DNA from: Reclinomonas americana ATCC 50394
Taxonomy: Eukaryota
Direction: 5' to 3'
DNA length: 44,249 nt
Assembly: GCA_048213135.1 (NCBI GenBank)
Contig: PS015546.1
Coordinates: 6,740 to 50,988, forward strand
Both the position numbers and the translations under genes were made by a program. This document shows, one piece after another, positions 1,024 through 42,500 of this stretch. Numbering within the stretch: position 1 is the first letter of the stretch; each line of letters begins with the position of its first letter. The notes below the pieces were generated by a model that saw nothing but the letters and a program-made list of their open reading frames with translations, made no database searches and was not told the DNA's origin.

Positions 1024-3803
1024 TCACTCGGGCAGCACCTGGATACCGGCAATCGGGCACGGAGTGTTGTAATAACCGCATTGTGGTGGGTACGAATCGC
1101 CGACCTTGACCGACAGGCACCGCATGCAGTACTCGGTCTGGCAGTGCTGGCACTTGAGATGCTTGCAGGCATCGGCGTGCTCTGCGCGCGCACGGCACGG
1201 GTGGGTGAGTTGTTGCGGAAGGGGATGAGAGGAGAGGGGAGGGGAGGAGAAGAGAGAGAAAGAGAGGAGAGNNNNNNNNNNNNNNNNNNNNNNNNNNNNN
1301 NNNNNNNNNNNNNNNNNNNNNNNNNNNNNNNNNNNNNNNNNNNNNNNNNNNNNNNNNNNNNNNNNNNNNNNNNNNNNNNNNNNNNNNNNNNNNNNNNNNN
1401 AGAGGAGAGGAGAGAGCACATCACACACACCTTGCACGGCGTGGCATTTGGGGCACGCGCGCGTCGTCGGCACCAGTCCGTGTTGTTGCTCGAAAGGCCA
1501 GATGACCTGCACACAACCACCCACGAAGAGGTCAGCACACAGTGCTTCACCTGCTCTCCCCTGCATCGTCACGCACCTTGCACTGCGCATTCCGCAGCAG
1601 ATCATTTGGCGAGTAGCAATCGCGATTTCCGCAGTGGGTCCGCGAGGAGCCTTCCCACTTCTTCTCGCAGCGCAGGCAGAAATGGGTGTTGCACATGCCG
1701 CACACAGCATCGCGGTCATTAGGGTTGTCGGGCATGCAGGCGGTCTTGCACTGTGCGCACACACACACACACACCACGAGCGTGTCAGCAGCGGGCGTTC
1801 ACATTCGCGCGACAGGAACCAGCCACGCAACTGTTGGGCACGTCTTCACGTTGCCCATCAGGAACTGCTCATTCAGCAACTCGTAGTACGCCATGGACAC
1901 CTGCTCAAAGTTGCGCTGTCCAGCAGCGTGTTGCACCACCACAATCGGGACGACTACGCAAGAGGTTGAGGGGTTAGTCGCCGGCGGGCGAAACAACAAC
2001 TACAAGAGCACAGTCGTACCGGTGCCGCAGTTGGTCTTGGCGCACTGCAGTGCACGAGTCTCTCGTCGCTGCACCTGGCTTCGCAGCAGGTCCTCAATGC
2101 TGCACAAGAATGTGAGAATCGGCGAGTCCAGAAAAAGTGTGGCGCAATTCTATTTCCACCACGCACCACTCATCGCAAATGCCATGTCCACACGACAGGC
2201 GGTAGCAGGCCTTGTCGCGCGCCATGCAGCTGGCACACTGCAGACCAACGGCCAGATCGACACCGGACGGAATCGTGACAATGCGTCGGCGTGATGCCGC
2301 CGTCTGCAGAGACGATTGCGCCTGCGCCGCCGGAGCTGCTGATCGTTACGCACACGTGAGTATCATACACACCGCCACTCAGACACACATGCATACACAC
2401 AAACCTTGTGTGGCCGTTGGAGAGTTGGCGTGGATCGGTGTAATGTCGCTGTGTGCGCGTGTGTGCGTGACATGAGTTTCGATAAAGTGCGGTGCACATC
2501 TTGTGGCGCACGGTTACGCAACGCGTCATCCACCCAGTAGCCCTTTTCTGGTCGCTGCGGACATCCGGCAAGCGCAGCCTGAATCGGGAACGTGCTGCCC
2601 GATCGCAAATCATCGCGGTCCCAGAACACGTAGCTGACGATAACGAAACACATACACGGCCGCGACCCGTAAGACGACTGCATCAAATTCATGTTCTGTA
2701 GAAACCGCGCACTCACCAGGTAGGTGGCACGTCGTCGCGGTGATAGAACGTGCCTTGATCTGTGCGATCGCGCGTAAGCACCAAAAACACGCAGCAGCAA
2801 CAACAACACACGCACACGCAGGCACGCACCGCCCACACGAATGGGTCCGACCGGGCGAATGGCGCGGACACGAGTTCCCGGCACCATCGGACGGCGCGAC
2901 GACGCCGCCGACGAATCATCGTCCGAATCTGCACCACCCGACTCTTGTATCGCCCGCTGCAACATCGTCAAGAACCCATGCAAATCGTCGGCAGCCTGAA
3001 TGATGATGAATACAGCAATAACAATGAGTCAATCACAATGTGCGAAATCGAGAAAGGGGGGTCTTCGGAGTGCGATCTTTCTCGCGAATGTCACTGAACA
3101 ATAGCGTACGACAGTGCCAGACACAGCAGCAGAGTGCGAGCGAGATTCCCGACTGCTCCGCACATGTTGTTTCTCTCATGCGCACCAGTCAAAATAACTC
3201 TCAAGGAATGTGGGAGAGAGAGAGAGAGAGGGAGTGAGTGAGTGTGTGTGCAGGGGAGACAGTGTGTGTGTGCGTGTGTGCAAGGGTGAGATTGTGTGTG
3301 TCCGCGTTCGATCAGTGCTCTCATTCTCGCGTGTCTGCCTCTCTCTCACTCTCCTCTCTCTCTCTCTTCCAGTGCATGTGTGTACACCAGAGCAGTGCGC
3401 GCGCACGAACGCGTCCTCTCACACAGACACATACACACAGACGTCATGACTGGACACCAACTCCGCACACACACACTCAGTGAGACAGAGACACACACGC
3501 AACTGCCTGCTGTGAGGGCCCTGGTGCGGCCTGCTGCTGCTGCGGCGGGCGCGGTCGCGGCGGCAACACCAAGTCCTTGCGCTTCATACACGCATTGCAC
3601 AAGTCAAAGTCGCAGCCCTTGACACAGCGATGCCGCCCAACCGCCGTCACTTGCCCGGGCGACACTTGCCGCGAGCATCCGTCGCAGCGGAAGCCGTAGT
3701 TTCCGGCGTGAGCGGCGTCCTTGAAGCGCTCGTTGAACTTGGGATCGTCGGCGCGGCCGAGAGGGTGAGGGTGCGTGTGGTGCGTGGAGGTGTTGGAGCC
3801 CAT
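1024..3803 (-). CDS. RBR (RING1-IBR-RING2) E3 ubiquitin ligase with N-terminal ZZ-type zinc finger and CPH domain; multi-exon
   Basis: ZZ: CDGC...RHRCVKGCDFDLCNAC. CPH-like: PGTRVRAIRPVGPIRVGDQGTFYHRDDVPPTCYVFWD...GYWV. RING1: CASC...LSCGHGIC...LQCAKTNC. IBR: KTCPTC...VCGMCNTHFCLRC. RING2: RACPKC...EHADACKHLKCQHCQTEYCMRC, with the catalytic Cys-x-His. The ZZ exon is joined by an inferred phase-0 intron (3503 to ~2997). Confidence 0.85.
1272..1400. other. Assembly gap (N run) inside an RBR-gene intron
   Basis: Run of N flanked by GA-rich sequence. Confidence 0.98.
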
Positions 3804-4105: not shown

Positions 4106-7100
4106 TTAGGGGGCCGAGGTGAACGACTCGTCGAGGGAGGCGTCTCCGGCGGCGGCGTTTGCGGCTGCGGCGACGGAGGCGTCGTCGGTGGCGCCGTAGA
4201 CGGTGGCGAGGCGATCGAGCATGTGTGAGGTGGCTTGGCAGGCGGTGAGGAGCTCGAGCATGCTGCCGTTGAGGACGCGGAAGATGAAGACGCCAATGTG
4301 CTGGCGGCGGTCGAGGCCGGTGTAGTATTCGATGGATTTGCCGAGCACGCTGGTGGCGTCGCCGAGGGCCGACAGGCGCGGATCAAAGAGGAAGTTGACG
4401 AATTCCAGCTCGTAGTCGCTGACGGCCTTGGCGGTGGAGGGTGCGGCGGTGGTGGCCGGCGAGGCGCCACTGCCTGTGCTGTGGCTGGCGCCGCCGGCAC
4501 TGCTGGCGCCTCCTCCGTTGGTCGGCGTCTGCATGGTGCTGGACGAGGCGAACGAGCTCGGCGTGAGGGCAGAGGCCGCGGCCAGTGACGTGCTGCTGCC
4601 GCCGCCTCCGCCACCGCCGGCACTGCCAGGAACAGTGCTGCGCGACGACTGCAACGCGGCCGCGTAGGTAAGCTGGCGCTTGACGGCGGCGATCATGTTG
4701 CGCACGCGGGTGTTGAGGCGCGGGATCTTGGTGAGGTTGGTGGTCACAAAGATCGGCCGCTCAAACGCACTCTCCAAGTCCACCAGCACTCGCTCCGCGG
4801 CGTCGTAGTAGTGCGAAAACACATTGATCTTCGCATCGGGGATCTCCACCAGCCGCTGATCACTCTTGCCCTCCTTGCTCTGCACCACCACCACGAAATA
4901 GTATGAGAATGCATGCGCACCACCACCGTACACATGGCAAGCGACGCACGCACGCACCTCGAAGAACACGAGTTTCTCCAGCACAAACACGGTGCCGGAG
5001 AGGCGGTCCCAGACCACGTCGTCGGTGGGCGCCATCACCTTTTGTCCAAAGTTGGCCTCCAGCAGCTTCAAACTCACCGTGTACGTTGGCTCGGTACTGC
5101 TGCCAGTGCCGCCACTCGCCGACGCGCTGCTGCCGCCACCAGCCGCCATGTGCGGCAGCACCGCCACCGACAGGTTCGTCAGCATGATCACGACTTCGCC
5201 GCGCAGTGAACGCGCGTTCGCGGCTTCGGTGGCCGACGCCGAGTCGAGCGTACCGCCGCCCGCCTCGTGCGACACACGGCTGTCGTCAGCCGTGTCTCCG
5301 TCGCCGTCGCCGAGGTCCGGCACGGTGATGGTGGTGTGGTACCGCTTCTTGGACAACCGCAATGTGCTGGCCGAGAGCGGCTCCACCCCGATCGCCGGTG
5401 TGCTCGCCGACGACAGCATGCCGTGCACATGCGCAGCGCCAGCGCCGGTCGCCCGCGACAACATACCGAGCACGCCACCGGAATGACCACCGCCGCCGCC
5501 ACCCACACCGTTTCCACCATGGCCGACAGCACCGCCGCCGCCGCCACTGTTGCTACCGCCACCAGCACCTCCACTGCCACGCGGCACGGTGTTGGTACTG
5601 AATCGGTGCGTGCGCTCGCGCTCGAGCACACTTTGCACGGATTTGACGGCATGGTCATGCGCATCGACCACCATCTTGCTCACACTGTGTTGCGATAGAT
5701 GAGTGCGCCACGATGAAGCACGAGAAGCACAAGCAATCATAATAGAGCTGCCTCACCGGGATCCCACGGCAATCAGTTCAAACGCATTCGTCGCGACCTC
5801 CACGCGAATGCCGTCGGAGATCACACGAGCCTTGAGCCACACCGACTCGCTGCCCTGCAGCAGATCGTCGCGATACTTGACCACCTGCTGCTGCGCCGAC
5901 AGCGACAACACACTGGCACCCTCGTACTGCACGTCGGCACGAATGTGGTTGACGGCGGCAAAGCACACATTCAGCACTCGCTTGCCCGACATGTCCACGT
6001 CCACCGGTCGGCGAATAACACCAATGCCGACACTGGTCACCGCGAGACTGCCGCTCAGCGAGCCCGCCAGCTCTGCCGCCGCGCGCAATACGGTGGCTCG
6101 GAAGGCCGAAATGCGCGTGCCCTCAGTCGGATCCTCGTACCGACTGTGTGAAGCGGATGAGTTTGAGGGGGAGGGGGCAGTTAGAAGGAACAAATCATGT
6201 GGGGACGCAACAGCTTCAGCTCGCAACCAATGTTGCTAAAGGTGGTGACCTGATGGCCGATACCGCGAACCGTGGTGTCGATCTTCACCTCGCCCAACAT
6301 GATGTTCACAAGCAGTGGCATCTGTGACGAAATGAACACGCCCCGGGCAGCCTCGGCAGCCGACACGGTTGCCGCGGGTGACGCTGGACCCACCGGTGCC
6401 ACAACTGCGCACAGACGCATCGTGAGTGCCTTGACAATTGGGTTAGGAGAGAGCAACAACGCAACATGCTCCCCCGGCACCGCGCGCAGAGGTTGGTGTG
6501 GACCGACGGCGCGCCCGATCTCTGTCGAGAGACTCGTACATGCGCGCCTCCACATTTGTCTTCAGCGGCGACCTGCAAGAGAGTGTGTGGTACATTCCGT
6601 GTGAACAAACGGCACGCACCAAGAAGAAAATGCCTGTTGGACAAGCAACGACGCAACGTAATGGACTTGCCGCCCTGTGCACCATGTAGCAGACTGCCGA
6701 CCTCGTCTGTGACCTTGCCGAGAATGTGTCGTGCCTCCAGCGCCTTGGCCTTCCACAGCTCCAAGAAGCGGAAAAAGCGACCGCTCTCCTCCAACTTGCA
6801 CGCCACTCGCACGTGATGCATGGCCGACAGCAGGAACACCACCGGCACCTCCTCGCCGGCCACATCGGCAACCTACACGAATGCGCGTGGTCAGGAGACG
6901 TTTCCACATGCTCGTGTGCTGCACGGACACCGCTCACCCTGTGCGAGTGCGTGTTCCATCCGGTGATCTGCACGTCGAAGAAACCCTGCTGACGGTTCTG
7001 CAAGTCGTACAACTGCGCCACCACAGAATCAAACGGTGAGGAACATGAAACAAGCACCACAGATGGTTGCCGTCGCCGCAACTTGCAACACGATTGACGG

Positions 7101-10100
7101 CACAGTTGCCTCCATGATGCTCATCTGCAACATGGCCTCCTGCACGCCACCAGAAATCGCCATGCGCAGCGCATCGTCGTCGTTGCCAATGTGCAAGCTA
7201 CGCAGCCCGTCAACATGTCAACGAAACAGCTCACACGCACACTCTCAATATAGATTATCACACACTCGCACACAACTCCAACACAATGTCGAACGTCGGC
7301 TGCGTGGTGAGCTGAATGTGAATCGGCGACAGGCGCACCAGAAGCGACAGAGACGACTCTGCATGCCAATAAAGTGAGCAAATGACAACACGACGAGATT
7401 GTAGAGAGGGACTCTTTCGTGCGCACCGATCGAATCCTTTCGCCGCGGAGTCGGCTGCACACACGCCACAAATGAGGCGACTGCCCAGACAAATCAATTT
7501 GACAAACAAAGTCTGCTTACCTGCACCACACGTGTCGGCTTTGGCGCCACCGCGGACAGTTCATCGTACGCCATCATGTGCATTCGCAACGCACGCGCCG
7601 ACCGACTCAGCAAATCATCGTCCGGCAGGTAGTCGCTGGCGGCGAGCGGCTGCATGGACTGTGAACGACCGTGCGTGCGACGCCGTGGAATGCCCGGTTC
7701 GTGATCCTCCACCCAGTGACGCCAGCGATTCACCGTCTCCACGGTCCAACTCAACGGCCAAGCAAAGCCGGCGACTTGCGGTCGCGGCTGCGCCACACGC
7801 CGACCGAGCTCAGTCATGACGCGGAAGTACAGTTGGCGAGCTCGACGCAGGCGGCGAATGCGCACCACTGCAGAGAGTGAGACGTGTGAGCACATGTAGG
7901 TATGACGAATGCATGCGCCTCCCAACGTCGTACCTCGGCGTTGCAAGGCAATCTGGTTCGCACCACGCGTGACAGAGACCAGCGACAAGTTGTGCAGATC
8001 CACAATGTCAGTGGCCGTGCCACGTCGCTGAAGGATCTTGCGACGGCGAGAGGAACTGTGTGCTCCCACACGCCAGTGAGCAAAAGAAAGCGCGACACCA
8101 AAAAAACATGAACATGGCCACATACTCACCGCTCCAACATGCACTGCTTCGTCTCCTCGACAAAGATCATCATGAGAGGCGAGAAGACAAACGGCTGGAA
8201 CTCCACATCCAGGCTGCACGTGATACGACCGGAGGCTCCGTCATCCTCAAACAACAACGGCGGCAAGTCTGCGTCCTGGTTCGGGTCACTCATTCGACTC
8301 CAATCGCTGTGATGCACTCGTGAGCTGTTGTCTCTCCATGATCACCACCACCACAACAACAGCAACACGCAACCCAGAGTCGAAAACGCCACCGGAGGTG
8401 TTGCCGAAAGTGCCCCGCGCCGCACCACCAGAGGGCGGAGGCGGGATGCTGAACGCACTGGCCGTGTCGCCCGACAACACATCGTCTTCCATCCCCGCAT
8501 CAAGCTCCGCTCCGAGATCCGAAGCCGCCGCCGCAGCCGCTGCTGATGCCGTCGGGTTGCGTCGCGAGCCGAACGACTCCGAAGTCGAACCACTCGACAG
8601 GTCGTCCTCGGTGGCACCCCCCGAACGGTCGGGTCGAGTGCGTTCACGCCGCCGCAACTCGGCCACATTCCAGTACTGCGACAACAGCGACCGTCAGTCT
8701 CTTGAAATAACAACACATACGATGCAGTTGGTATGAAAGCGTACCCGAGCGCTGAGTGTAATGTGAGGCAGTGGCAGGTTGAGAATGTGACGGCGCTCCT
8801 CCTCGGCCAACCGCTTGCCGTCGCGGTACTTTTGCACCTCCTGATGCAACGAACTGCAGACGACGTTGCCGCGATCGAGAATGCACACCAAGTCGAGCGA
8901 TATCGACAGAGGAGACTCGTCGTACGACACGGGCTGACGCGGTGTTGCGCCGAGTGCCGCCGGCTTGGCGCCTGCGACCACATTCGGCGACCGCGCGGAC
9001 GATCCGGGCAGGCCAACGTAGTTGACACCATTCGACACCTCCAGCGCCTGCACCCGCTCGGCGCCGGCCACTGCCACTGCCGCCGCGCGAGCCACATACA
9101 CATCGTGCAGCAACTCCTGCGACAGCCGGTACAGTCGGCGGGTGGAGTCGCCACCCTGCGGCAACACCAGGTGCGGTGCCGCCGTCTGCAACAAAAAAAT
9201 GAGCCATTCATTTGGCGACAGGCACCGAGATGAGGAAGACGACATACCAGCAGCGAAAAGTCCTCGATCAAGTTGACCACCTGCGGCGCCACGTCGGCAT
9301 TCAGGCGTACTTCGGGACCCTTGACGTAAATCTCAGCGGCTGCGTCAATCTGTCGTCGATACCGCTTCACGTGGACGTCGACGTAGCCGTTCTGGAAGAG
9401 CACGCGGTTCTGTGCGCGTGAGCCGTCGTGCGCGGTGGGTGGATGCGCCAGCATGCGCTCGGAATCCGTCGGTATGAAGGCTTCCACTTGCTGGAACGTG
9501 CAGCGACCGACCAGAATCGACGACACATGTCGCTTGCGATTACCGCGGCGCGTCAACGTGGTACTCGTGGCGCTCTCCGTGCGTGACGAGAGCTCCACAG
9601 CGCGAGCGTACATGACGAGCGAGGCACCGCGATTGTCGGCACCCAGACCGGGAGCGGCCTTGTTCTCCAAACAGAACGGCAAACTGAACGAGGAGCTCGA
9701 GATGCGCAGCACGAGTGACGACTTGACGTCGGCCGGTACGGCACCCGCCTGCAGAGAAGGGTGCACAAGTCAGGCACATCGCGAACGAACACCGTGGCAC
9801 GCAGTGAGAACAGACAAACCTCGCGAATACCCTGCTGAAGCCGCTGCTGGAGGCCACTGACCTCTCGTTGCACCTCAGCAAAGGCTTCGTTGACAGCGTG
9901 CGCTTCGCGAGCCAGCTCGGCGTGCTGCTGTTGTATGGCGTCTCGGAACTGCACACACAGTTTCAGCCTCTCAACGCACACATGGTAAGAGGAGAAAATA
10001 CGTAACTCGCGAAAAGGACGAGGAAAAGTAGCGCGAGAGGTACATCATAAAGTAGATGCCCTCGCTGCGCAGCATGCAGTGCGGCTGTCGAATCTCGATC

Positions 10101-13100
10101 AGCAGCTTGTTGTTGCACTCATCGTCGAGCAAGCGGCCGGGTCGCTGACTGGTACTGGCGGGATCGTCGGAGAACAGCAGCGATTCCTCGCTCCGTGGCA
10201 CGCGCGCCGCACGCATGGCACGGTTCACCAGTCGGCGACTCGGCACGAAGCGCGAGTAAAAGTTGCGCACCAAGACTGTCGTGTTGCCGCGCGCCCAGAT
10301 GACACACTCGGGTGCGCTGGCGCCAGGAGCCGTGCGATCAAGTGCACTCGGATCGATGAGCCACAAACGGAGGCCGCCACGCTTCGTGTCCGCACTCCAG
10401 TACACGCGCGACGAGTCCAGGCTCTGATCTGGAGTGGGGAGAGCGCCGGCCAGGAGGATGCTCGCCGCCGGGCGGATGCACACCAGCGGATTCGCTCGGT
10501 GCTGCACAGACAAACCGAGAGCACCCGTGTCGCAAACGACAGCCACTGGCGGAACCGTGAACACCAACTGCAGTCCGCCCAGTTCCACATTCAGCGACAG
10601 GTTGAGGCGGTGCTTCAGGTCCAGGTCGACCAGCTCGTACATGAGACCGTCGGGTGTCATTGTTTGCACCAGCCGACCGCGACCACCGTTCGCTTGCGCG
10701 CCACTCGGCGGCTGCGGCGAGAACGGATCACCGTATCCCGAGCCGCCAGCTTCTGCAAAATCGCCCTGACCCATCGACGCCGGCGACGAGTCCAGCGCAC
10801 CACGACTCTGTGAGGCCGACAAAGTGACATTGGCCTTTTGCGGTGGCGAGGTGGCCATCGACGGTGGACTCAGCTGCGCCCCTCCCGACGCCAGCGGCGA
10901 CAACACGCCCAGCACACTGCCTCGGCTGCCACTTCTGCGTTCCTGCAGGTCGCGACGCATGGCCGCACCTGCTTCTGCGAGCTGTGCATGCAGCTGTCAG
11001 CTGCTCGTACTGCCCAGAAAAACTTGCAGGGAGGGATTGAGCACGTACTTCGTTCACGTCCTCGATCAGACTGCGGTGGAGCGTCAGCAGCGACTGGAGG
11101 AACTCGCCGGAGAACGAGTTGATGATCGGCTCCACATGCACCGACACATTGGCAGTGACCACATCGTGCACCACCACTGGTCGTCCGTCCAGCCCGAATC
11201 GCGACACTGACGGATCTCGCTCAGATGTGCCGTCAGAAGTGACAACTGCACCCGAGCAGCTCAGCAACAAACCCCGACAAAGACAAACAATGTGTGTGCG
11301 TACCATCGTCAACCATGGCGTTCCACGCAGCACCGCTGGCTCCGTGGGCCTGGGCAGGTCGCGAACTGCCACCGGTCTCGAGCACCTCAATGTCCTCCAA
11401 CGAGAACTCGCCACCAGCAACAATGCTCGGCATCTGGAACACGCGATGGAAGCTGCGACGGAGTCACGCACATCAGCAATCAACAGAAGAAACAACAACA
11501 GCAACAACTCTCGTCATCAACTCACCTGCCGGCGACGGCTTGCGAGTGGCTGAATTGCAGGAAGCTCTTGTGCACGGATGCGAAGAGAGTGGCGCGCCGC
11601 GGCGCACCGAAATACGAAGCCTGAGCGCCGATGCGTTGGAGTCCCACACGCAGCGTGAGATTCTTCGTCAGGTGCACCACCACGTTCACGTCAGTGAAGG
11701 CCACCGACACGTGTACGGTGAGGTGCGATCCGCTTGGCACGCGATGCGATCCAGGTCGGATCTGAATCGCGCTGTCCGTCAGATCCCACAAGTCTGCCGC
11801 CTGCGACGACGTCGTGGTGCTGCTTCCACCAATGCCGGCATCCGACATTGGGTCGTCGGTGCTCGCCAGGTCCAAGTCAACGTCGTCGTCGGTGGCCACA
11901 TCCACGCCCCCGTACGCATCCATGGCTGTCTCCACAAAGCGCGCACGCCGCGGTACAGGGCTCTGGTCGGCGAAACGCACACGACCGAGACCTTCGTTTC
12001 CGCCCGCGACACCACCCTTGCCAGGCTGGCGACTGGCCTGCGGCTGCGACGGCGACGGTGGTTGCCGCTGCTGGTGCTGTTGGTGCTGCTGGTGCTGCTG
12101 GTGCTGTTGGTGATGTTGGTGGTGCTGGTGATGATGCTGCTGCGCGTGGTGATGGCGCTGCTGATGAGCGGCGTCAGCATGCTGCAGTGCGACGTCGTTC
12201 TGCAAATCGAGGCTCAAGCGAGCGTGCGATCCACCCTGACCGCCATTGGCCAGATCCGCAGCCGCCGAGGCCGACTGTGGCATGAGTGACGCTCGCCGCT
12301 GCAACTCGTCGAGCGTGCTGGTCACGGCATTGGCCATGGACTGCCAGCGCTCCACAAATGTCTGCAGCGCACGCAGTGACTCCTGCCAGCTCTTCAGCGT
12401 GGGCACCTCCGACTCGGGACCACGCAGACACAGCATAAAGGTGAGAGTGCGCTGGCGTCGCAGGGCGGCCAACGACGACAGTCGCTTGACGTGGAAGGAG
12501 CGCCGCTTGCCACCCGACATGAGACCCTGCAGGGTGAGAAGTGAGACACCCCTCCTTGTCATCAGCCAACACAGACACCCAACTGTTGGCTCATTGAGAA
12601 GTGCGTCATGCTGCTCATCATCCGAGGCGGCGGCCCCCGCGTGACCACCCACACCGTCAACGTTGACACCGTGGTGCGTTGTCGCCAGTGACGACTCCAC
12701 CGCGTCCATTGACGGCGATGACACCGCCACGTGGAAGAACACATCGGTCAGCATGCTGCGGAACACGGGCAGATCGGCACTGCTGCCAGCCGGTCGTCTG
12801 TGATACAACAACAAAACAACCCTTTTAGCGAAGACAGAGAGACGCACACGAACGCGCATTGCGACGCAACAGCGCCGTTGGCTGGTACTCGTACTGCAAG
12901 ACCAAGCGCTGAATCTGCAAGTGCGAGAACAGCAGCACATCCACGTCACGGCCGAGTGGCAACTCGCCCGGCAGCTGGTAGTCGACCAGCGTGTTCTGGC
13001 CATGGCTGACCAGCACATCCAGTCCCGACACCTGTCCAATCATGTCAGCGGTCAAAGCGAAAATGATCACCATCGTCAGCATCGCTACACCAACCTCCAG

Positions 13101-26150: not shown

Positions 26151-29100
26151 TCAATTAATAGTCGACTTGCGAGCGGCACCGCCAGTGGGGCTTGCGCCTG
26201 GCGATGCGGATCCCGAGCCGAATCGATTGGCGCTGGCGGTGGTGATGGCCGCTGTAGTGGCCGTCACTGCCACAGACACAGAAGTACGTGAGTGTGTGAA
26301 ACAGTTTCCCTGTGAACGAAGACGCCGCAAACATACTTTGTCGCATTGGGAGTGGCTGGGTGTGCTCCAGCACCTCATCGATGACGACCTCCTGCAGATC
26401 CTTGCGCGTGATAATGCCCACCAGTCGATTAGATTCGTCGACTGCGTGTACGCGCACTGCGTGTGAGAACGATGGTTCCGCAGCATGAGACGGATAGGGA
26501 GACACACGTACCCACGGGCAAGTGACGCAAGCCGACGGCACGGAACAGGCGGAATGACTTGTGTGCTACATCGCGATTCTCAGCAAGAGGAGGAGATTGT
26601 GTTGAGGAAGAGAGTAACGCACCGGAAGTGAGCTCATTGACGACTAGCGGATGTGGGTTGTAGTACAGCGTAATGTCGATCCACAGATCGCGGTCCTCTG
26701 TGCATCACAGAACGTTGTTGAGCATCGTGCGCGAGACTTGACAAGAGACAGACACATACCGGGTTCGACTTGGATTCGCTCCAGCTTCGGTGGCCGCGGG
26801 TATGCGAGATAGGCAAACTGCTTCGCGGTCACGTAATTCGTGTGCACGTCTGGCGTGCTGCGCTCCGGCTGCACGACAACACAATAATCGTCAACAAGCA
26901 CAGCAACACGTAATATGAGAGAGAATGAAGGACGCAACATAGGAGATGAGCGAGTATGGCACATTCTGGAAGGCCTTCAAGTGGAGGATGAGCAGCAATT
27001 GCTGCCGAGGTGAAGAAGACGGAGAAGTAAAGCAGTGAGCAACACCACATCAGCCACGCTCGATTGTGCAGTCGTAATTCGTTCGCACCGAGCGCAGAAT
27101 CATGCCCTTGAAGATCTGACCCTGGCCACCCTCATGGTCCTCCACTGGCACCACCGGGAACCCATTGTGTGTGGTCGTTTTCAGCAGCTGGGTGTTCACG
27201 CCTCGGTGAGCCAACGTGAACAAGCAGCAATGACTCCACAAGCACAATGACGCACATCGTATATCACGCCGACACGCTCCACTAGTCTCAGGGTCCTGAC
27301 TGGCGTCGACATGATGTCACTGTAGGAGGCGGAGAAAATGAGAAGAAGTGTGCGAGCAGCACACTCGGACGGCCACGCACCGAGCGGTGAGTTTTCTCAT
27401 CTGATGCGACGGCTCAAACTCCAGCAGTGGCACATGCTTGAGATGAATGTGCAAATCGTAGATGCCGCAGGTGAACAGGTCACCGACGAGCTTCGAGACC
27501 ATGATGGTGAGCATGATAACAAGGCCGAAGGAGATGTCTGTGCGCTGCAAGTGTCAGGCCATACGTCATCACACACACCGAGCTGCACTCCACACTCCGC
27601 ACCATTGGTGGCCTCCAGCAAAATGACAGTCAACGAGCTGCGTTTCGTGGTGTGTGAGCCACACGATGCGCGTACATGGCAGGAGCGCAGCAACGCAACA
27701 TTGTCATGCGAGCAATGCCGCCCAGCATGCCACTCGCGCCAAGCAGAGCGTACGTGCCCACATCAATGTCCAGACCAACAATGTTGCGCAAAAAATGACC
27801 ATACAGACGGCCAATAGAGGCTCCCGCCAGCAGGCTCGGCACAAATAGGCCCGACGGCACCGAGATGCCGTACGTCAGAATCGCCAGCAAATAGTAGTAC
27901 GGTATGAAAATGGCCAGACTCGACAGGGAGTACGCTGGAGGTTGTCAAAGTCAGCCAGCAACACAGCGTGAGAAGGGAAGAGTGGACGCACAGTCTTGGT
28001 AGTGGAACAGAGCCTTGATGGTGTCTTCTTGCCGATTGAACAGCAGCGTGGCACTGGTGCTAAACTGTTCTTTCGGACAGTAAAAGCTGCCATGGAACAG
28101 TCAGTTAGTGAGCAACAAAGGTAGGCACGCGCGCACACCCACCTCTTCAAGTAATCATTCTCCTGGGAGAAGATCCAGTCGGGCAGCAGTTTGTTGGTGG
28201 GTCGCGCCATGCAGTTTTGATCAAAGTACGGAATGATGAAGCCAAAAAGCGACGTAATCAGCGTGACAATGGCCACCTGTTGGTCCGCACAGAGTGTGAG
28301 AAAGAGCCAGGGAACTAACAAACAAACTTCTCACTCTCGCCCGCACACACACCTCGAGTACTCTCCGCCACGGGCGCGGGTGGACCCACTTTTGTCGCCA
28401 CAACGTGAGACGGCGATTCAAAAAGATGAAAAACGCTCCCAGCAGGCCGCCAACGACACCGAGGAACATGAACAGCGGCAACTCCCAGAACTGGTAGTGC
28501 GTGCTCTCAATGTAAATCACAGTCTGATTGCCGACCTGGTATTCCTTGGCCACGGTGAACTGGCCAAAGCTGAGCAGGCCTGCATCGCGAACGTGGATGA
28601 GAAGGCATCCACAATAAAAAAAAGCACAGAGCAGGCGAGCACGCACCAGGAGTGGACAACGAGCCCCACGAGCCATTATTGATGCCCGACAAGAAAATAT
28701 CCAGCACAAAAGTGGTGATGATGCAGCAAAAGTACGTGCGCCACGTGAGCTCCTGCTTCCAGAACGACGCCGCCTCCTCCAGTGCAAACAGTGTGCCACC
28801 CGTCGGTGCGCCAAAGGCCGCCGCCACACCTGAAACATCAATGTGTGTGAGCAGAGTTCAACAAACTTGCTGAATCAACGCCACCGCACCTGCGGCGGCA
28901 CCGGCCGACACAAAGTCGCGCTTGTCGTGATCGTTGTGGAACGAGTGCATCGGCAGGTTCCATCGCAGCGAGCGCGAGCCGAGCTGGCTAATGCCGGAGC
29001 CCACAATGGCGCCCGAGTGGATCATGGGACCCTCTTTGCCAATGGCCAGACCGCCACTGACCGAGAAGAGAATGCCCACGGCCTTGGAGATGAGTGCCTT

Positions 29101-30149: not shown

Positions 30150-30771
30150 ATGGAGAACGAAGCAGTGCGCGTGTTCACCGAGGACGACCTGGTGATGCCT
30201 CCCAGTGTCAGCGTGCTCCCGCGTGCAGTGGTTCCAAGTGGAAGTGTGCCTTCGTGCGCGCGCGAGGCCGCCGAGGCCGCACTCTGCCTGGAGAGACACA
30301 AGACGGCCGCGCTGTGTCAGACCGTGGTCGGCACCTACGTGCGCTGCAAGCACACTCGAGTTACGTGCACACACATGAGCGTACACGAGGGGTGTGGCGC
30401 TGACTGTGGTGTGCAGGATCGAGAGGCAGCGCGGGCGGCACTGCGCGGCGAGTGCGCCCTCGTGCAGCGCATGGACGAGGCGCAGTATGAGAGCACGCGA
30501 GCGGGGTTGGCCGAGGCCGCGGAGCAGCTGGGCAGGAGAGCGCGTGCGGAACGGAGGGCGGCGATCATGTTGCAGGGACAGCAGGTGGCGGCGGAGCAGC
30601 AGAGTGCGCATTTCTTCCGCTGGTTCCAGCGGCGATTGGACGAGGAGTTTCTGCGGAAACGCGTGCAGAATGTTGCGTGTGCCTGTATACGATGCGTTAC
30701 CGCTGGGCTCATCCGTGTGCGCACAGGCGGAACGGTGTTGGAAGGAGCGCAAGGCAACTGAGGACAAGTAA
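30150..30771 (+). CDS. Hypothetical helical/coiled-coil protein (3 exons)
   Basis: MENEAVRVFTEDD...ALCQTV|DREAARAAL...RKRVQN|AERCWKERKATEDK*, with in-frame GT-AG introns. Confidence 0.55.
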
Positions 30772-30814: not shown

Positions 30815-31737
30815 TCACACGGATGAGTAATAGGCGCCGGTGACCTCGGCAGGCCGGCTCTGTATGCAACACGATCAGCAACGGAAACCTGCAAACAAAA
30901 ACAAGAAACACGCAACATCGCCAGCAGCAGCTGCAGACGCGCTCGGCGGTCCATTCTTCGGCGCCGGTGCATGACTGTGCTGACTGTGCGTATCCGCATC
31001 GTCGCCAATCGCCGCAAAGCCGCGTCGCTCCGACGGCGATCCGTAGTCACCAAAGAGCATTGTGGCCACAAAGAGGTAGGCGAACCAGCCGAGCAGCGAA
31101 AAGAACATGCCGATAAAAGCGACGTAGGAATCGTTGCAGACGTTGACGGTGGCGCCGTCGCAGCCGCGCGTGCGGTCGCCCCACACCTTGATCAGACCGC
31201 CGATGAACAAAAAGTAGATGGCGAGCACGACTTGCGTGATGAAGGTCGACACGCCGTGGATTTGCAGGCGGCCGGTGAGGAACATCCACACGAGAAGGAA
31301 GGGCGCGGTCACCAGGAACAAGATCTCCGTCCAGAAGTCCTTGGAAAAGGGAAGAGAGGGTAAGGCAGAGCTGCGTGTGTGTGTGTGTGTGTGTGGAGGG
31401 GCGAGGGGGCTGCAGCGCAACTCGAGTGTTGGCAAACGTCTCTGCATTTGTGTTGTTCGCAAAGTGTTGAGCGACATGTCTCACGCGCGCACTCGCACTC
31501 TCTGTCTCTCACTTACGAACCTTGGTTCATGAAGGCGATGAAGGCCGAGATGAACATAATGTAGCCGATCTGCAGACGAGGCGTGAGCGAGGCAGTGACC
31601 GGAAAAACATGCATTAGTGGTGTGTGTGCGGAAATAACACATGCATGCATGTAAAGAGAGGGACGCACCACCATGATGCCGCAGAGGATCATCACAATGA
31701 GGTGGCGGTGGCGCTGCACTTGGTCGGTGAGAGACAT
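30815..31737 (-). CDS. Four-transmembrane protein of unknown family (tetraspan/MARVEL-like topology)
   Basis: MSLTDQVQRHRHLIVMILCGIMV|IGYIMFISAFIAFMNQG|DFWTEILFLVTAPFLLVWMFL...C-x6-C loop...|SRPAEVTGAYYSSV*. Four hydrophobic segments; last acceptor chosen from branch-site context. Confidence 0.7.
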
Positions 31738-31822: not shown

Positions 31823-32786
31823 TTACACAGCCTCCACAGCAGTGGCAGCATTCTGCGTTGTCGCCTGCTGCTGCTGTTGCTGCTGTTTGTTGTAATACGA
31901 GTTGTCCTGCGCCGTTGGTGTCGCTGCCGGTCGCGTGGGCAGCGCACGCAGGTCCTCCACGGCCATCTCGCCATTGGCCAGTCGCAGCACGAGATCCAAA
32001 GTCAGCATGCGGCGCACAATCTTCAGCGCAGACTTGTCCTGTATATCGAGTGAGCGACGTCGTGATGCTACTTTTGTTGTTACAGAGCCACGCAACAGTG
32101 AGCTTCTCCAATGGCGCCTCGCCCATGGTCGTCAGCAGCAACTCCGCCTGCTCCGCCGTCATGCTCGGTCGCTTGGCACTGAGCGCCGACATGAGCTTCC
32201 CGTCAAGCATCGCCTCCCACACGACCTCCAGCAACTGCGGCACCTGCTGCACCGTCAACATGCACTCCTCACTGCTCTCCGCCTCAAACGCCTTGTGCCA
32301 CGCCGTGGCGAACTCGAGCGAGCCCACAAACGAGTCGACCCACGCGCGCACTCGCATTGTCGCCGCATGCGACACACACTGCTTGTTGTTGTTGCTGTTG
32401 CTGGTGGTGACTGCTGAAGGCAATGGTGTGTGATACGTGGAGGCAGAGCTAGGCTCGCTGTCGTCGATGAACATCTCAATCACGGCCAAGTTGAGCGGCG
32501 GAAGAAGTACACCAACTTGGGACTTCTCCTCGGTTCCGACATTGTTGGTGTTGGCCGTGGTCGCCGACACCTCGTCGCTCGCTGAGCTCGGCATCCAGCT
32601 CACCTCATCGTCCTCCTCATTGGTGGTGGCGGCAGTGATCACTGCTCGCGCAGGCGAGGAGGGCGCAGAGAGCACTTGCTGGAAGAAGCCGGGCAGCTGC
32701 AGAGGCGCATCAGCCATGGGCACGAGACTCGCAAAGGGCTTGTCATTGTTGAAGTCTTGCGACTTGCTGCAGGCGCATCCACCCAT
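31823..32786 (-). CDS. Hypothetical protein with predicted N-myristoylation/palmitoylation (MGGCACS)
   Basis: Long exon 32786-32097, GTTGCGT donor, then second exon DKSALKIVRRMLTLDLVLRLANG...AVEAV*. Confidence 0.6.
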
Positions 32787-35365: not shown

Positions 35366-36830
35366 TCACTCTTCGTCTTCGTCCATCATCTGCGCCGCCA
35401 TCTCCATGTCCACATCGTCGGGTTCGGGCACCGAGTTGGCCGCCTGCTCCTGCGTTATCGGCTGCTGCTGCTGCTGCTGCTGCTGACTGAGTCTCTTCAG
35501 CTCCAACGCCCGTTCGTAGTTCTCTTCCACTTTCCGCGCCTCGTCAAAGTCCATTTCCGCCTCCTCCGATGGTGACTGCGCACGAGAGCTCTGCACGCGC
35601 GCGCATACGTCAGCAACCTGCAGGTGGCGCGCGCGAGTGTGTGGGTGTGTGCAACACGCACCGCTCGACTCGACTCTTCTCCGTCGCTCTCCTGGTGAAT
35701 CGTCCACTCCTGCTCGCCATCGTCGTCGTCGTCGTCGTCGTGATTGTCGCGACGCGGTGGAGCGGCATTGGCCCGCTTGTTGCCAGCCCGGGCCTGCTGC
35801 CGAGGCGGCGGTGAAGGTGAGTCGCGAGCTCCCGGCATGGCCGCCTCGCGCAACACGTCGAAATCGGGGAACTCCTCCTCGGGCGGCGCATCCACACCAC
35901 GCAGCTTGCGATTCAGCCGATGCAACTCCTCCTACGCGCCCATCGTGAGTATAAACGCATACACAGGCACGCCTGCTTCTCCAAGCGACAGACCTCAATC
36001 TCCTGCCGCCGTCCCCAGTGCGAGATCTCGTCGCAAAAGTCGGCAAACCTGGCGTTCGGGAACACATCGTGCGCCCACGCCTGCATCACCTCCAGCAGCG
36101 CACGCAAATCGCGCCCCTCCTGTCCCGCTCCACGCAAACGCACCGCCTTGCACTGTGCCAGCAGCGACTCCAAGCCACGCGATCCCAGCAGCACCGGCGG
36201 CTGCAACTTGGGCTTCGGCGTCCGCTTGCTCTTCAGCACCGGCGCCGGCTCGCCACCCGGGACGTTCACTGTGCGCGTGCAGGCATGAGACAGATGCGGA
36301 AAGGGGGTGGGGTTGGGGGAGAAGAGGCGACGAAACGGGGATCGTGTGCCTCCACCAGCATCGGGTCGTCGCCAGCACCGCCAGCAGTGGTCACCACAGC
36401 GCGGTTGGCGCGGCCTTCTTGCAGAGAGACCATCGGTGGCATGCGAGAGGAAGAGGAGGAGGAGGGAGCGGCGGCCGCAGCAGCAGCCGCTCGTTGCTGT
36501 GAGAATAGGGAAGGTGAGAGAGGGGTAAGGGAGGGAGGAGAGGAAGAGACAGTGAAAGAGAGACGAGGATAAGATGACTTGGGCAGAGTTCGAGAGCGAG
36601 GACAAGGACAGCAGAGAAAGGAGGCAAGGGGACGTGACAGACTTGGAGACACTAGAGAAAGGAGGGAGAGTGTGGTGGAGAGAGATGAGGAGGGTGCAAG
36701 TGACTGGGGCACAGAGAGAGAGGAAACAGGAAGAGAGAGACAGACGAGTTACACTCTTGCCCTCCCTCTCTTGCCCTCTCTCTCTCACTCACGCAACTGA
36801 ACGTGCCGATCGCCCATACAAGTCACTCAT
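35366..36830 (-). CDS. TIPIN: TIMELESS-interacting protein / Swi3 / Csm3 (replication fork protection)
   Basis: Swi3 domain: KRTPKPKLQPPVLLGSRGLESL..RLRGAGQEGRDLRALLEVMQAWAHDVFPNARFADFCDEISHWGRRQEIE; acidic tail. First exon MSDLYGRSARS is inferred. Confidence 0.85.
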
Positions 36831-37380: not shown

Positions 37381-37415
<35 letters not shown>

Positions 37416-39566: not shown

Positions 39567-42500
39567 ATGAAGATCATTGACCGCCTTCACCAGGCGCTCG
39601 ACGAGGGCCGCATTGTGTACTCCTTTGAGTACTTTCCTCCGGTGCGTTGTGTGCGCGTGTGAGAGAGAGAGAAGACAAGCGGAAGTGGGGGCACATGTGC
39701 ATCAGCTCATGTCGCCCCCCAAAACACACGTACTTGCACTTGCACACTCTCTCTGTCTTCTCTCCCTGTGTGTGTGTGTGTGTGTGTAGATGTGCAGGTC
39801 ATCGTGCACTTGTCCACGTGTTTTGCCACAATGCTCACTCTTCTCTCTGTGTGTGTGCAGAAAACCGATGCTGGTGTGCAGAACCTGTACGACCGCCTGC
39901 AGCGTATGAAGGAGTACAAGCCGCTCTTTGTTGACGTCACATGGGGCGCCGGAGGTAATGATCGAATTTGATTCTTTGAAATACGTGGGAGGCGGCTTTT
40001 TCTCCGCGAAAAGTTCTCACGCTCTTCTCTCTCACTTTTGTGCTGTTTTTCTCCCTTTTCTGCATCTCTTCTGCTGTTGCTCTTGCTTCTGTTCCAGTCA
40101 TCGTTCATCCTTGTCTACATCCTCTCATGTCTCTTTCTGTCTTCCGTCCCTTCGTTTGCATTTCTTGCCCTTCTCTTCATTCTCGCGCTCCTCATGCGTC
40201 CTTCACTGCTTCGCTTTCGCTCACTCTCTCCCTCTCTCCCTTGCCTCTCAAACTCCCTCTTTCTCTCCCCCCTCCGCTTATCTTGCTTTCCCTTCCCTTC
40301 TTCTTTGTCTCTCCCCTCCCTTCCCTTCCCTTCCCTTCCCTTCCCTTCCCTTCCCTTCCCTTCCCTTCCCTTCCCCCTTCTCACCCCCGTCTCTTCCCTC
40401 CCCCCAGGCTCCACCTCCACCATGACCATGGAGCTGTGCACGTCGATCCAAAACATCATCGGCATGGAGGCACAGATGCATCTGACGTGCACCAACATGC
40501 CCAAGGAGAAGATCGATCAGGCGCTCAAGCACTGCAAGGAGGTCGGCATTCGCAACATTCTGGCCCTGCGTGGAGGTCTGTTGGGCTCTGTGCCGTTTGC
40601 TGTTTGATCGACTCACTGACTCAACACGCTGCTCGCACCAGATCCACCGGCTGGTCAGGAGCGGTGGGAGGCCGTCGAGGGCGGCTTTTCACATGCTGCC
40701 GACTTGGTGCGCTACATTCGCCGCGAGTACGGCGACTTCTTTGGCATTGCCGTGGCCGGCTACCCGGAGGGACACCCCGAGTGCACCGACTACCAAGCCG
40801 ACCTGCAGCACCTGAAGGAGAAGGTCGACGCTGGCGCCGATTTCATTGTCACGCAGCTCTTCTTCGACTGCGACAAGTTCCTGCAGTTTGTGCAGGTGAG
40901 CGAAGCGTCATGGAGTGTGTTCAGTTGATGGAGTGGGATTATCGATGGACCTGTTGTGCATTCACAGTGCGACCTCGTTTCTCCAGTGTCTTTCTCCTTG
41001 GTTGCCTTCCTCTCCATCTTCCCCCCTCCGTCTTCTCCCTCCGTCTTCCCCTTCCGACTTCCCCCTCCGTCTTCCTCCTCCGTCTTCCTCCTTCCGACTT
41101 CCCCCTCCGTCTTCCTCCTCCGTCTTCCCCCTTCCGTCTTCCCCCTTCCGTCTTCCCCCTTCCGTCTTCCCCCTTCCGTCTTCCCCCCTTCCGTCTTCCC
41201 TCGTTCCGTCTTCCCCCCTCCGTCTTCCCCCTCCGTCTTCCCCCTTCCGTCTTCTCCCCTCCGTNNNNNNNNNNNNNNNNNNNNNNNNNNNNNNNNNNNN
41301 NNNNNNNNNNNNNNNNNNNNNNNNNNNNNNNNNNNNNNNNNNNNNNNNNNNNNNNNNNNNNNNNNNNNNNNNNNNNNNNNNNNNNNNNNNNNNNNNNNNN
41401 NNNNNNNNNNNNNNNNNNNNNNNNNNNNNNNNNNNNNNNNNNNNNNNNNNNNNNNNNNNNNNNNNNNNNNNNNNNNNNNNNNNNNNNNNNNNNNNNNNNN
41501 NNNNNNNNNNNNNNNNNNNNNNNNNNNNNNNNNNNNNNNNNNNNNNNNNNNNNNNNNNNNNNNNNNNNNNNNNNNNNNNNNNNNNNNNNNNNNNNNNNNN
41601 NNNNNNNNNNNNNNNNNNNNNNNNNNNNNNNNNNNNNNNNNNNNNNNNNNNNNNNNNNNNNNNNNNNNNNNNNNNNNNNNNNNNNNNNNNNNNNNNNNNT
41701 TCCGTCTTCCCCCTTCCGTCTTCTCTCCCTCCGTCTTCTCCACCTCCGTCTTCTCCCTCCGTCTTCTCTCCCTCCGTCTTCCCCCTCTGTCTTCCCCCTC
41801 CGTCTTCCCCCTCCGTCTTCCCCCTTCCGTCTTCCCCCCTCCGTCTTCCCCCTCCCCCTTTCTCTTTCTCATCCCTTCCCTTTTCTCACCCGCTTTCATC
41901 CCCCGCAGGACTGCCGCGCCCTCGGCATCCACTGCCCGATCGTCCCCGGCATCCTGCCGATTTCCAACTACCAGTCGTTCCGCCGCTTCACCCAGTTCTG
42001 CAAGACGCACATTCCGCCGCAGGTGGAGGAGGAGCTGGCCGCACTGCGCACTGTTGCGTAATCATTCTTGCACTTTTTCTTTTCTCTCTCTCTCTCCATC
42101 CGTCTCACTCTTGCGCAGGACGACGACGAGGCCGTGAAGGAGTACGGCATCAAGCTGGGCGTCCGCATGTGCCAGTACCTCATGGAGCGCGGAGTGCGCG
42201 CCCTGCACTTTTACACACTCAACTTGGAGAAGAGTGTGACCAGCATCATTGAGGGCCTGCACTTGGCGCCCTCTCGCAAGCGCTCTGTCCCATGGGAGCC
42301 GGTGAGTTGTGATGCACTCCCTTCTTTGCTGTTCTCCCCTCCCCCTCCGGCTCACCCCCTCCACGCACAGTCACAAACCCGCGATGAGGAAGTGCGCCCG
42401 ATTTTCTGGTCCAACCGACCCACCTCGTACCTGGCACGCACATCCATGTGGGACGAGTTCCCGAACGGCCGCTGGGGCGATCGTCGCTCTCCGGCCTACG

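Follow-up and report, generated by a model that had tools for sequence, protein, structure and literature searches.

Displaced GTTGCGT donors in the short introns of Reclinomonas americana: a class of 5' splice sites that may be read one nucleotide out of register

The DNA analysed here (the window) is a stretch of 44,249 bases of contig PS015546.1 from Reclinomonas americana ATCC 50394, with about 59% G+C and runs of N at 1272-1400 and 41265-41699. Many of its predicted short introns begin with the heptamer GTTGCGT, and this class very probably consists of real donors. On the sequence evidence set out below, 21 of the 28 GTTGCGT copies in the window are supported as donors of GT-AG introns that are 55-85 nt long, two copies (3503 and 36797) are left open and five are classed as non-donors. 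Homology confirms the exact junction predicted in a CLC chloride channel/exchanger gene and favours the junctions predicted in the MTHFR and PEX10 genes. The heptamer looks like the normal donor signal moved by one base, and recognition displaced by one base is, on balance, probable. Since the commonest donor heptamer of the window is such a one-base-shifted signal, a shifted register seems to be a routine mode of reading at many of its intron starts.

GTTGCGT copies and their use as donors

GTTGCGT was found 22 times on the minus strand and six times on the plus strand. In 100 dinucleotide-preserving shuffles of the window the mean number of copies was 9.99 (standard deviation 3.23), and none of the shuffles reached 28. 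The density of the motif was 0.633 per kb, about nine times the 0.073 per kb found in 397 kb of unrelated eukaryotic metagenome loci, a control set that had been fetched for another purpose (a scan with an MTHFR exon). Chance as the source of the excess was rejected by the shuffles together with the enrichment in donor-blind gene finding described below, and the five to seven leftover non-donor or open copies fit a chance expectation of about ten. Among the five non-donors, the copy at 39404 reads ATG-TTG-CGT at a predicted start and the one at 8556 (+) lies antisense to BLTP1; the others are the copies at 4065, 32972 (+) and 38891 (+).

Introns were predicted with our own Viterbi gene finder, whose three-periodic second-order coding model was trained on the long open reading frames (ORFs) of the window. 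Any GT could serve as a donor and any AG as an acceptor, with a bonus for a CTNAY branch motif and for a pyrimidine before the AG. In the first donor-blind run, which had no donor scoring, 11 minus-strand introns started at GTTGCGT. When a length prior was added, 13 of 112 introns did so; on the minus strand the count was 12 of 103, compared with 0.73 expected from 22 motif copies among 3088 minus-strand GT sites (hypergeometric p = 4.9e-13). A comparison with the background frequency had been proposed in an earlier note on this DNA as a check of its claim that GTTGCGT is a donor, and the enrichment speaks for that claim. GTTGCGT was the top donor heptamer of the donor-blind run (the next heptamers were used three times each), and the introns that it opened were 57-75 nt long, with CTCAC/CTGAC-type branch motifs and CAG ends. 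In pass 2, with a donor model learned from pass 1, GTTGCGT was used at 17 sites. Seven introns (22560, 6657, 6465, 16478, 1831, 42053 and 30672) were placed by hand at sites where the finder had translated straight across an in-frame intron, merged two introns into one or broken on an N run. The final table held 101 introns; 16 of them lay outside 40-130 nt and were set aside, leaving 85 short introns for analysis.

All 19 positions that the earlier note had listed as intron starts carry GTTGCGT on the strand given for them, and 17 of them are supported as donors of short introns. The list fell short at the two open copies. At 3503 the frame that ends there in phase 0 has a coding score of +12.1 over the preceding 303 nt, and no short intron gives a coding continuation; at 36797 neither flank has a coding signal, and an AG with a pyrimidine tract lies 94 nt downstream. 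Supported donors at 534 (+), 6211, 16478 and 26938 were additional to the list. The motif had been described as invariant and as a second class of donor. These two descriptions did not hold, as seven of the 28 displaced donors in the final set differ from GTTGCGT by one letter, and GTTGCGT is not minor but the commonest single donor heptamer in the window. The suggestion that a first BLTP1 donor, GTTCCGT at 23769, has the same displacement agreed with the donor-blind run, which picked this site.

According to their first letters, the 85 short introns fell into 53 with G at +5 (the normal GTNNG register, hereafter ordinary), 28 shifted ones and four that were neither. The shifted class was defined by T at +3, a base other than G at +5 and G at +6. 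It consisted of GTTGCGT (21), GTTGCG followed by A, C or G (3), and GTTACGT, GTTCCGT, GTTTCGT and GTTCAGT (one each), and deleting one T turns all 28 into GTNNGT. Its share was roughly a fifth to a third of the predicted short introns. Of the 28 shifted donors, 27 had C at +5, 25 had T at +7 and 24 had G at +4. Ordinary donors had G at +3 in 31 of 53 and T at +6 in 35 of 53, with C (20), T (20), A (11) or G (2) at +4. The shifted class is thus far less degenerate than the ordinary class. Donors that begin with GTT but are already in the normal register (GTTTGT, GTTTGC) follow G like other ordinary donors; those of the GTTTGT type open five of the 85 short introns.

Register of recognition at the shifted donors

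The two classes differed in the last base of the exon. G was present at -1 before 45 of 53 ordinary donors but before only one of 28 shifted donors (Fisher p = 2.5e-13), and the difference was retained when only introns whose donor and acceptor had both been found without a donor model were counted (31/37 vs 1/19, p = 1e-8). Among donors with an equal GCGT core, 8 of the 10 that read GTGCGT were preceded by G, compared with 1 of the 21 that read GTTGCGT (p = 4.7e-5); after removal of the seven hand-placed introns the latter count was 1 of 14 (p = 4.9e-4). The earlier note had, correctly, counted 18 of its 19 sites as not preceded by G while GTGCGT donors mostly follow G, and the same was seen in the supported set, where 20 of 21 do not follow G. 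An absence of the -1 G preference, as is expected of shifted-register sites, was therefore found. In exons of the window, GTT is preceded by G in 12% and by T in 37% of cases. Active avoidance of G at -1 was rejected because exonic GTT is already preceded by G so rarely, and compensation of a missing G by a strong core was rejected because GTGCGT keeps its G. RCGT cores were not significantly enriched among ordinary donors without G at -1 (3/8 vs 9/45, p = 0.36).

We propose that GTTGCGT and its one-letter variants of the form GTT-NN-GT would be the 5' splice site of ordinary short GT-AG introns of the major type, cut before the first G. In GTTGCGT, an extra T would have pushed the normal GTNNGT signal, of which GTGCGT is the commonest form, one base in the downstream direction. 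Positions +3 to +7 would then take the pairing that usually covers +2 to +6 (first with U1, afterwards with the U6 ACAGA); the U facing A7 of U1 (and later U6) would be the one at +3 instead of +2, followed by NNGU at +4 to +7. The +1 G of the intron would take the place of the exon-final G opposite U1, so that shifted introns would no longer need an exon-final G. The explanation as a whole, a displaced GTNNGT donor together with an ACGCAC-like U1, we consider to have a slightly better than even chance of being right.

The standard 5' end of U1 gave very weak duplexes with the shifted donors. Nearest-neighbour energies averaged -0.5 kcal/mol for the shifted class in any register and -6.2 kcal/mol for the ordinary class, and the best duplex of the consensus shifted site reached -0.6 kcal/mol. 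With a hypothetical ACGCAC end the means were -6.2 (shifted) and -8.9 kcal/mol (ordinary), and the shifted pairing of the consensus site was -7.3 kcal/mol. This end was derived from the near-fixed UGCGU of the shifted class and the preference of ordinary donors for C or T at +4; it would be complementary to GCG, approximately ACGCAC instead of ACUUAC. An altered U1 5' end is a possibility to which we give somewhat less than even weight, and on the modelled energies a variant small nuclear RNA (snRNA), that is, a co-evolved U1, appears likelier than a standard U1. No snRNA gene was found in the window at the Rfam gathering thresholds, and a search at E up to 1 returned only sub-threshold chance matches resembling microRNA (miRNA) or small Cajal body-specific RNA (scaRNA) families.

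Shifted-register 5' splice sites of human genes were reportedly described by Roca and Krainer in 2009. The earlier note had taken such sites (GUUAAGU, read by a standard U1) as the model for GTTGCGT. The part of this idea that stood comprises real GT-AG donors, a GTNNGT signal displaced by one T and the lost need for G at -1. The standard-U1 part did not, since five pairs interrupted by a C mismatch are too few for the human model to be transferred unchanged. In the cited parts of the human study, the validated non-canonical registers are estimated to account together for 1.5% of 5' splice sites (PMC4856993). The human shifted register described there resembles the present one in the GU-U start, the letters of +3 to +6 placed one position late, the U1 pairs moved by one and the cut before the G; it differs in being a rare exception with an AAGU core and a standard U1, whereas here a fifth to a third of the short introns and a GCGU core are concerned (PMC4856993).

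Two other pairing schemes were weighed, and both appear unlikely, to a similar degree. In the first, +1 G and +2 U would be paired as usual, one U would be looped out, pairing would resume on GCGU and the -1 base would face C9 of U1. A bulge at +2/+3 has been validated experimentally for human 5' splice sites, where an extra U beside the GU is tolerated by looping out, according to the cited parts of that work (PMC4856993), and such a bulge would account equally well for the extra T and the conserved GCGU. However, the human bulge predicts that G at -1 would still add a useful pair (PMC4856993), and G is nearly absent before GTTGCGT and frequent before its unshifted twin. In the second scheme, a dedicated second U1 with one extra 5' nucleotide (approximately ACGCAAC) would pair with GUUGCGU perfectly, while another U1 would serve GTNNGT. 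The modelled duplexes of this end (-9.5 kcal/mol for shifted and -7.2 for ordinary donors) are in its favour, it would explain why 21 of the 28 sites are letter-perfect, and standard and modified U1 variants are stated to coexist in Physarum in the cited portion of a preprint (bioRxiv 10.1101/2022.06.08.495308). With the usual CC 3' of the pairing block, however, such a U1 would again favour G at -1, which was not seen.

Recognition by protein would be a further alternative. A protein of the U1 small nuclear ribonucleoprotein or an associated factor (U1C- or LUC7-like) might read UGCGU directly, with RNA pairing of minor importance, as the negligible standard-U1 pairing of the shifted class would allow. 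To our knowledge no protein has a precedent for recognising five intron bases of a 5' splice site in a sequence-specific way, which counts against this account, and nothing in the window bears on direct protein recognition. LUC7 proteins do define two 5' splice-site classes in animals and plants, as the cited parts of the source describe (PMC11842720). Overall, reading by a protein is improbable.

Returning to displaced pairing, several known systems share some of its features. The cited portion of the preprint gives GUUUGU(U) donors and a U1 candidate with AACAAAC for Entamoeba, and GUGCGC donors and a U1 candidate with ACGUAC for Mastigamoeba (bioRxiv 10.1101/2022.06.08.495308). What these Archamoebae share with the present class is an unusual donor that is strongly fixed and has T at +3 or C at +4, accounted for there by a changed U1 5' end; unlike it, they are described with one register and one consensus (bioRxiv 10.1101/2022.06.08.495308), whereas here the donors point to two registers in the same genes. 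By analogy, an ACGCAC U1 would parallel the altered Mastigamoeba candidate. Ostreococcus lucimarinus, with GTGCGTG donors outside chromosome 2, likewise has a GC-rich genome in which GTGCGT is the favoured ordinary donor; unlike the present DNA it is intron-poor, and no GTTGCGT class is mentioned in the cited parts of the paper (PMC2483917). Animals, plants and yeasts have two major 5' splice-site classes that depend on exon-side (U5) or intron-side (U6) pairing and on LUC7 paralogs, and as here the exon-final G matters for one class, strong intron-side letters for the other. In the cited parts of these sources both classes keep a single register, whereas here the intron-side class is displaced by one nucleotide (PMC9803359, PMC11732430, PMC11842720).

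A full-text literature search, in which figure logos are not searchable, returned no paper treating GTTGCGT or GUUGCGU as a splice signal. Non-canonical registers are thus already known; what appears new is a main role for such a register, with a fixed GCGU core. A wider proposal is that the lineage rewired its reading of the 5' splice site: a U1 matching GCG would accept the core at two distances (GU-GCGU and GU-U-GCGU), through one U1 or two variants that differ by one inserted base, and would place a fifth to a third of introns one nucleotide off the universal register. We regard this proposal as doubtful. If it were true, this would be the first organism with a non-canonical U1/U6 register as a main splicing mode, a slide of the 5' splice site relative to U1 and U6 having so far been known from a few human sites and minigenes. 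If the displaced form is indeed the commonest, the organism would be a natural system in which to study how offset U1 pairing still sets the cut site, the hand-over to U6 with an extra nucleotide, and the co-evolution of splice signals and snRNAs. Any gene finder that has learned GTNNGT, with G at +5, as the donor will get a large fraction of the introns wrong here.

Exact junctions and the kind of intron

The positions of the junctions were evaluated by homology. In each scan, all donors within ±15 nt and all acceptors 30-150 nt downstream were combined, with any dinucleotides, and every stop-free product was translated and scored against a profile of homologs. In a control with eight ordinary CLC and MTHFR donors, the predicted GT-AG junction was the best GT/GC-AG pair at seven; at 27578 another GT-AG pair scored above the predicted one. 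At CLC 27699 the GT-AG junction starting with the first G of the motif ranked first of 4686 products (45.6 bits), compared with 35.1 bits for GC at +3 and 17.1 bits for read-through. At MTHFR 42053 it scored 40.2 bits (rank 24 of 7022 products), higher than any other GT/GC-AG pair, and GC at +3 gave 37.4 bits. At PEX10 24450, with a profile of 27 homologs, the spliced product scored 44.6 bits and read-through 33.0. At 1831 the alignment of the downstream exon to Pfam IBR starts with the first residue of the exon and covers profile positions 26-62, with E = 0.0033, which is below the Pfam cut-off. It had been claimed that several junctions rebuild conserved motifs; this agreed with the scores at CLC and at PEX10 (GVRF/L, the slash marking the junction), and the IBR case (CPT/C) is suggestive only, at its sub-cut-off score. 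In BLTP1, Pfam Csf1_N/BLTP1_N and phmmer matches to the unspliced ORF stop at about residue 146-149, which corresponds to the 23261 donor, and the junction scan there did not distinguish the GTTGCGT donor from a GT at +5. The scan at CLC 26938 was uninformative because the region is not conserved.

These scores also bear on misplaced junctions, that is, on a true donor at GC +3 or at GT +6/+7, or on retained coding sequence, with GTTGCGT arising merely because intron starts are rich in GT. A GC donor at +3 would preserve the frame at every site, the introns at 22560, 24450 and 30916 are in frame and stop-free, and at 6652, 3496 and 30679 the donor-blind run took a GT lying 5-8 nt into the motif. 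Nevertheless, the GT of the motif beat GC at +3 at CLC and MTHFR, and splicing beat read-through at CLC and PEX10. With an unchanged acceptor, a GT donor at +6 would alter the frame, and it was outside the five best GT/GC-AG pairs at CLC and MTHFR. Moreover, the letters that follow the inner donor vary, which would leave seven fixed letters from the predicted cut unexplained. Misplacement of the class is therefore very unlikely.

Apart from the donor, the shifted introns resembled the ordinary ones. GT and AG ends and a restored frame, as in major (U2-type) introns, were found, and all 28 shifted donors of the final set were paired with a CAG acceptor. The median intron length was 68 nt in both classes, and composition was alike. 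In the stretch 8-45 nt from the 3' end, 21 of the 28 shifted introns and 48 of the 53 ordinary ones had a CT[ACG]A[CT] motif, at a median of 18 nt in both classes and most often as CTCAC in both, in a comparison where the gene finder itself rewards a CTNAY motif. The shifted introns thus have a branch site of the yUnAy kind like the other introns of the genome. The classes were interleaved within genes, with 33 ordinary and 16 shifted introns in BLTP1 and 12 and 2 in CLC. U12-type introns start with RTATCCTT and have a branch site resembling TCCTTAAC near their 3' end. A U12 type was rejected for the shifted introns, which have GTTGCGT donors and the CTCAC/CTSAY branch motifs of ordinary introns. 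The same spliceosome probably serves both classes, and nothing points to a separate (U12-type) one. Retention of GTTGCGT by descent in a family of mobile introns (introners) rather than by recognition, which the exact seven-letter identity at 21 intron starts might suggest, is extremely improbable, since pairs sharing interior 8-mers are not in excess within the shifted class (7.7%, compared with 10.3% among ordinary introns and 9.8% between classes), so that the GTTGCGT introns are not copies of a mobile intron, and lengths and composition do not set the class apart either.

A number of points weigh against displaced recognition or against the exact cuts on which it is built. The -1 base of the shifted class is near the exonic GTT background (G in 1 of 28, binomial p = 0.13; T in 16 of 28, p = 0.02), and the -1 data thus show that a requirement for G is missing but give no positive sign of a shifted register. 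Neither pseudouridine nor proteins enter into the duplex energies. A preference for C at +4 is also found in Thecamonas and Mamiellales, which yet keep a standard U1 according to the cited portion of the preprint (bioRxiv 10.1101/2022.06.08.495308), so that C at +4 or +5 alone is no proof of an altered U1. Cleavage positions were deduced from reading frames, coding statistics and three homology tests only. Among these tests, 23 non-GT-AG products outscored the GT-AG junction at MTHFR 42053, and GC at +3 with another acceptor scored 45.3 against 44.6 bits at PEX10 24450. The BLTP1 scans (23769, 23261, 23117 and 22560) were uninformative because the protein is not conserved past the junctions. 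The gene finder was ad hoc, and the 16 of 101 final introns outside 40-130 nt are probably wrong; pass 2 was circular, since its donor model came from pass 1; and every one of the seven hand-placed introns is a GTTGCGT intron. In addition to the inner GTs preferred by the donor-blind run at the three sites given above, an earlier donor-blind run took an inner GT at 2517, and at 12870 the donor-blind runs took an in-frame GT 21 nt downstream.

Introns, genes and sequence context

The coordinates of the GTTGCGT donors and of the variant shifted donors are collected in Table 1.

Table 1. Introns with GTTGCGT or variant shifted donors, with the two open GTTGCGT copies (positions in the window; the donor is given as the last exon bases and the intron start)
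Feature	Position	Strand	Exon end	Intron start	Gene or location	Support
81-nt intron	1751..1831	-	aca	GTTGCGTG	RBR/IBR E3 ligase gene	hand-placed acceptor
74-nt intron	2449..2522	-	cgc	GTTGCGTA	RBR gene	donor-blind run and pass 2; local coding score weak
68-nt intron	6144..6211	-	gct	GTTGCGTC	BLTP1	both donor-blind runs
61-nt intron	6405..6465	-	cat	GTTGCGTT	BLTP1	hand-placed
85-nt intron	6573..6657	-	tac	GTTGCGTC	BLTP1	hand-placed, paired with 6465
67-nt intron	8307..8373	-	tgg	GTTGCGTG	BLTP1	both donor-blind runs; sole GTTGCGT donor after G
73-nt intron	12798..12870	-	gct	GTTGCGTC	BLTP1	pass 2
67-nt intron	16412..16478	-	tcc	GTTGCGTG	BLTP1	hand-placed acceptor (CTCAC branch, CAG)
70-nt intron	17878..17947	-	gat	GTTGCGTC	BLTP1	both donor-blind runs
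75-nt intron	18186..18260	-	cct	GTTGCGTA	BLTP1	both donor-blind runs
71-nt intron	21280..21350	-	gaa	GTTGCGTC	BLTP1	both donor-blind runs
69-nt in-frame stop-free intron	22492..22560	-	agc	GTTGCGTT	BLTP1	hand-placed
68-nt intron	23194..23261	-	ggc	GTTGCGTC	BLTP1 N-terminal region	both donor-blind runs
66-nt in-frame intron	24385..24450	-	ttt	GTTGCGTG	PEX10	both donor-blind runs and homology
70-nt intron	26869..26938	-	tat	GTTGCGTC	CLC gene	both donor-blind runs
62-nt intron	27638..27699	-	aat	GTTGCGTT	CLC gene	both donor-blind runs and homology
57-nt in-frame intron	30860..30916	-	gat	GTTGCGTG	small membrane-protein gene	both donor-blind runs
58-nt intron	32039..32096	-	act	GTTGCGTG	gene 31825-34209	all runs
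68-nt intron	534..601	+	gct	GTTGCGTC	gene at left end of window	donor-blind runs
55-nt intron	30672..30726	+	aat	GTTGCGTG	ORF 30147-30758	hand-placed; CTCAT branch, CAG
66-nt intron	42053..42118	+	act	GTTGCGTA	MTHFR	hand-placed and homology
GTTGCGT, plausible donor	3497..3503	-			end of first coding exon, RBR gene	
GTTGCGT	36791..36797	-			upstream of Swi3-domain gene	possibly an intron of the 5' untranslated region
72-nt intron, variant shifted donor	23698..23769	-	att	GTTCCGTC	first BLTP1 intron	donor-blind run and pass 2
58-nt intron, variant shifted donor	9949..10006	-	cga	GTTACGTA	BLTP1	all runs
68-nt intron, variant shifted donor	36269..36336	-	ccc	GTTTCGTC	Swi3-domain gene	all runs
75-nt intron, variant donor	19045..19119	-	gaa	GTTGCGAC	BLTP1	both donor-blind runs
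70-nt intron, variant donor	7013..7082	-	caa	GTTGCGGC	BLTP1	both donor-blind runs
58-nt intron, variant donor	17063..17120	-	gct	GTTGCGCT	BLTP1	pass 2
104-nt intron, variant donor	2996..3099	-	att	GTTCAGTG	RBR gene	both donor-blind runs

Some of these introns need comment. For 1831 the upstream frame is open in phase 0, read-through meets stops in all frames, and the intron has a CTGAC branch motif and a CAG end; the acceptor was placed by hand because the N run at 1272-1400 disturbed the gene finder. The two-intron model at 6465 and 6657 keeps a single open frame through a 107-nt exon. The alternative given by the gene finder is one intron of 245-248 nt from a GT 5-8 nt inside the 6657 motif, and because this also keeps the frame, the intron at 6465 is less certain. 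At 12870 the donor-blind alternative uses the same acceptor, and read-through in the coding frame meets a stop. Pass 2 used the 16478 donor with a 191-nt intron. The intron at 22560, with a CTGAC branch motif and a CAG end, had a local score of 13.9 when spliced and 9.5 when read through, and the gene finder read through it. Read-through of the intron at 534 (+) meets stops in all three frames. At 30672 (+) the frame that ends at the motif in phase 0 had the only positive coding score of the six frames (+8.9); what counts against this intron is that the choice of the donor-blind run fell on a GT located 7 nt farther downstream, in a different frame. The intron at 42053 (+) was placed by hand because the N gap broke the gene model; its local coding score was 16.0, and read-through meets a stop. 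As for the variant donor at 17120, the donor-blind runs used another GTTGCGC at 17169, which leaves the exact model unsettled.

The introns at 22560, 24450 and 30916 (69, 66 and 57 nt) are multiples of three without an in-frame stop, so that their retention would add 23, 22 and 19 residues and not truncate the protein. The small genes at 30147-30758 (+) and 30817-31285 (-), for which no Pfam match was found, are convergent, tail to tail, about 60 nt apart, and each has a GTTGCGT intron just 5' of its stop codon. Two donors with GTGTGC lack G at -1, act followed by GTGTGCAC and gtt followed by GTGTGCGA, at 39187-39273 and 7198-7273 on the minus strand. In both, a second GT lies two bases in and is followed by GCAC or GCGA, which may be a two-base displacement of the same core.

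The window is very intron-dense eukaryotic DNA, with about one intron per 250-300 nt of coding sequence. Pfam searches of unspliced ORFs placed a BLTP1/Csf1-like giant gene, PEX10, the CLC gene, a Swi3-domain gene, a DnaJ gene and an RBR/IBR-type ligase gene on the minus strand, and MTHFR and V-ATPase subunit e on the plus strand. The BLTP1/Csf1-like gene has its N-terminus near 23700 and its stop near 4108 on the minus strand. The gene finder fused it with PEX10 into one model (4108-25180, minus strand) of 5237 residues and 57 exons; the BLTP1 part has about 51 short introns, and much of the protein is low-complexity sequence rich in Gly, Ala and Ser. The closest proteins to the genes of the window in large collections showed only 54-68% identity. 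A metagenome scan with a BLTP1 exon found no relative. The scan with an MTHFR exon gave 80 loci, of which the full-length matches had at most 57% identity and one partial match of 35 residues had 71%.

Several repeats were also observed. A minisatellite with a C/T-rich unit of 13-14 nt, approximately TCCGTCTTCCCCC, occupies 41012-41264 and 41701-41855, on both flanks of the N run at 41265-41699, with 18.5 copies of a 14-nt unit on the left and 11.2 copies of a 13-nt unit on the right. It appears to lie within a long MTHFR intron, between one exon that ends at about 40925 and another that ends at 42052. At 38302-38508, between the V-ATPase e gene and the gene at 38941-39406, a 103-nt unit occurs twice with 88% identity in apparently non-coding sequence. 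Microsatellites of the (GT)n/(TG)n type were found at 19443-19530 and 37376-37422. Sub-threshold miRNA-like Rfam matches at 37381-37676 overlap the second of these and look like chance. The other microsatellite lies inside a BLTP1 intron, immediately 5' of its TAG acceptor.

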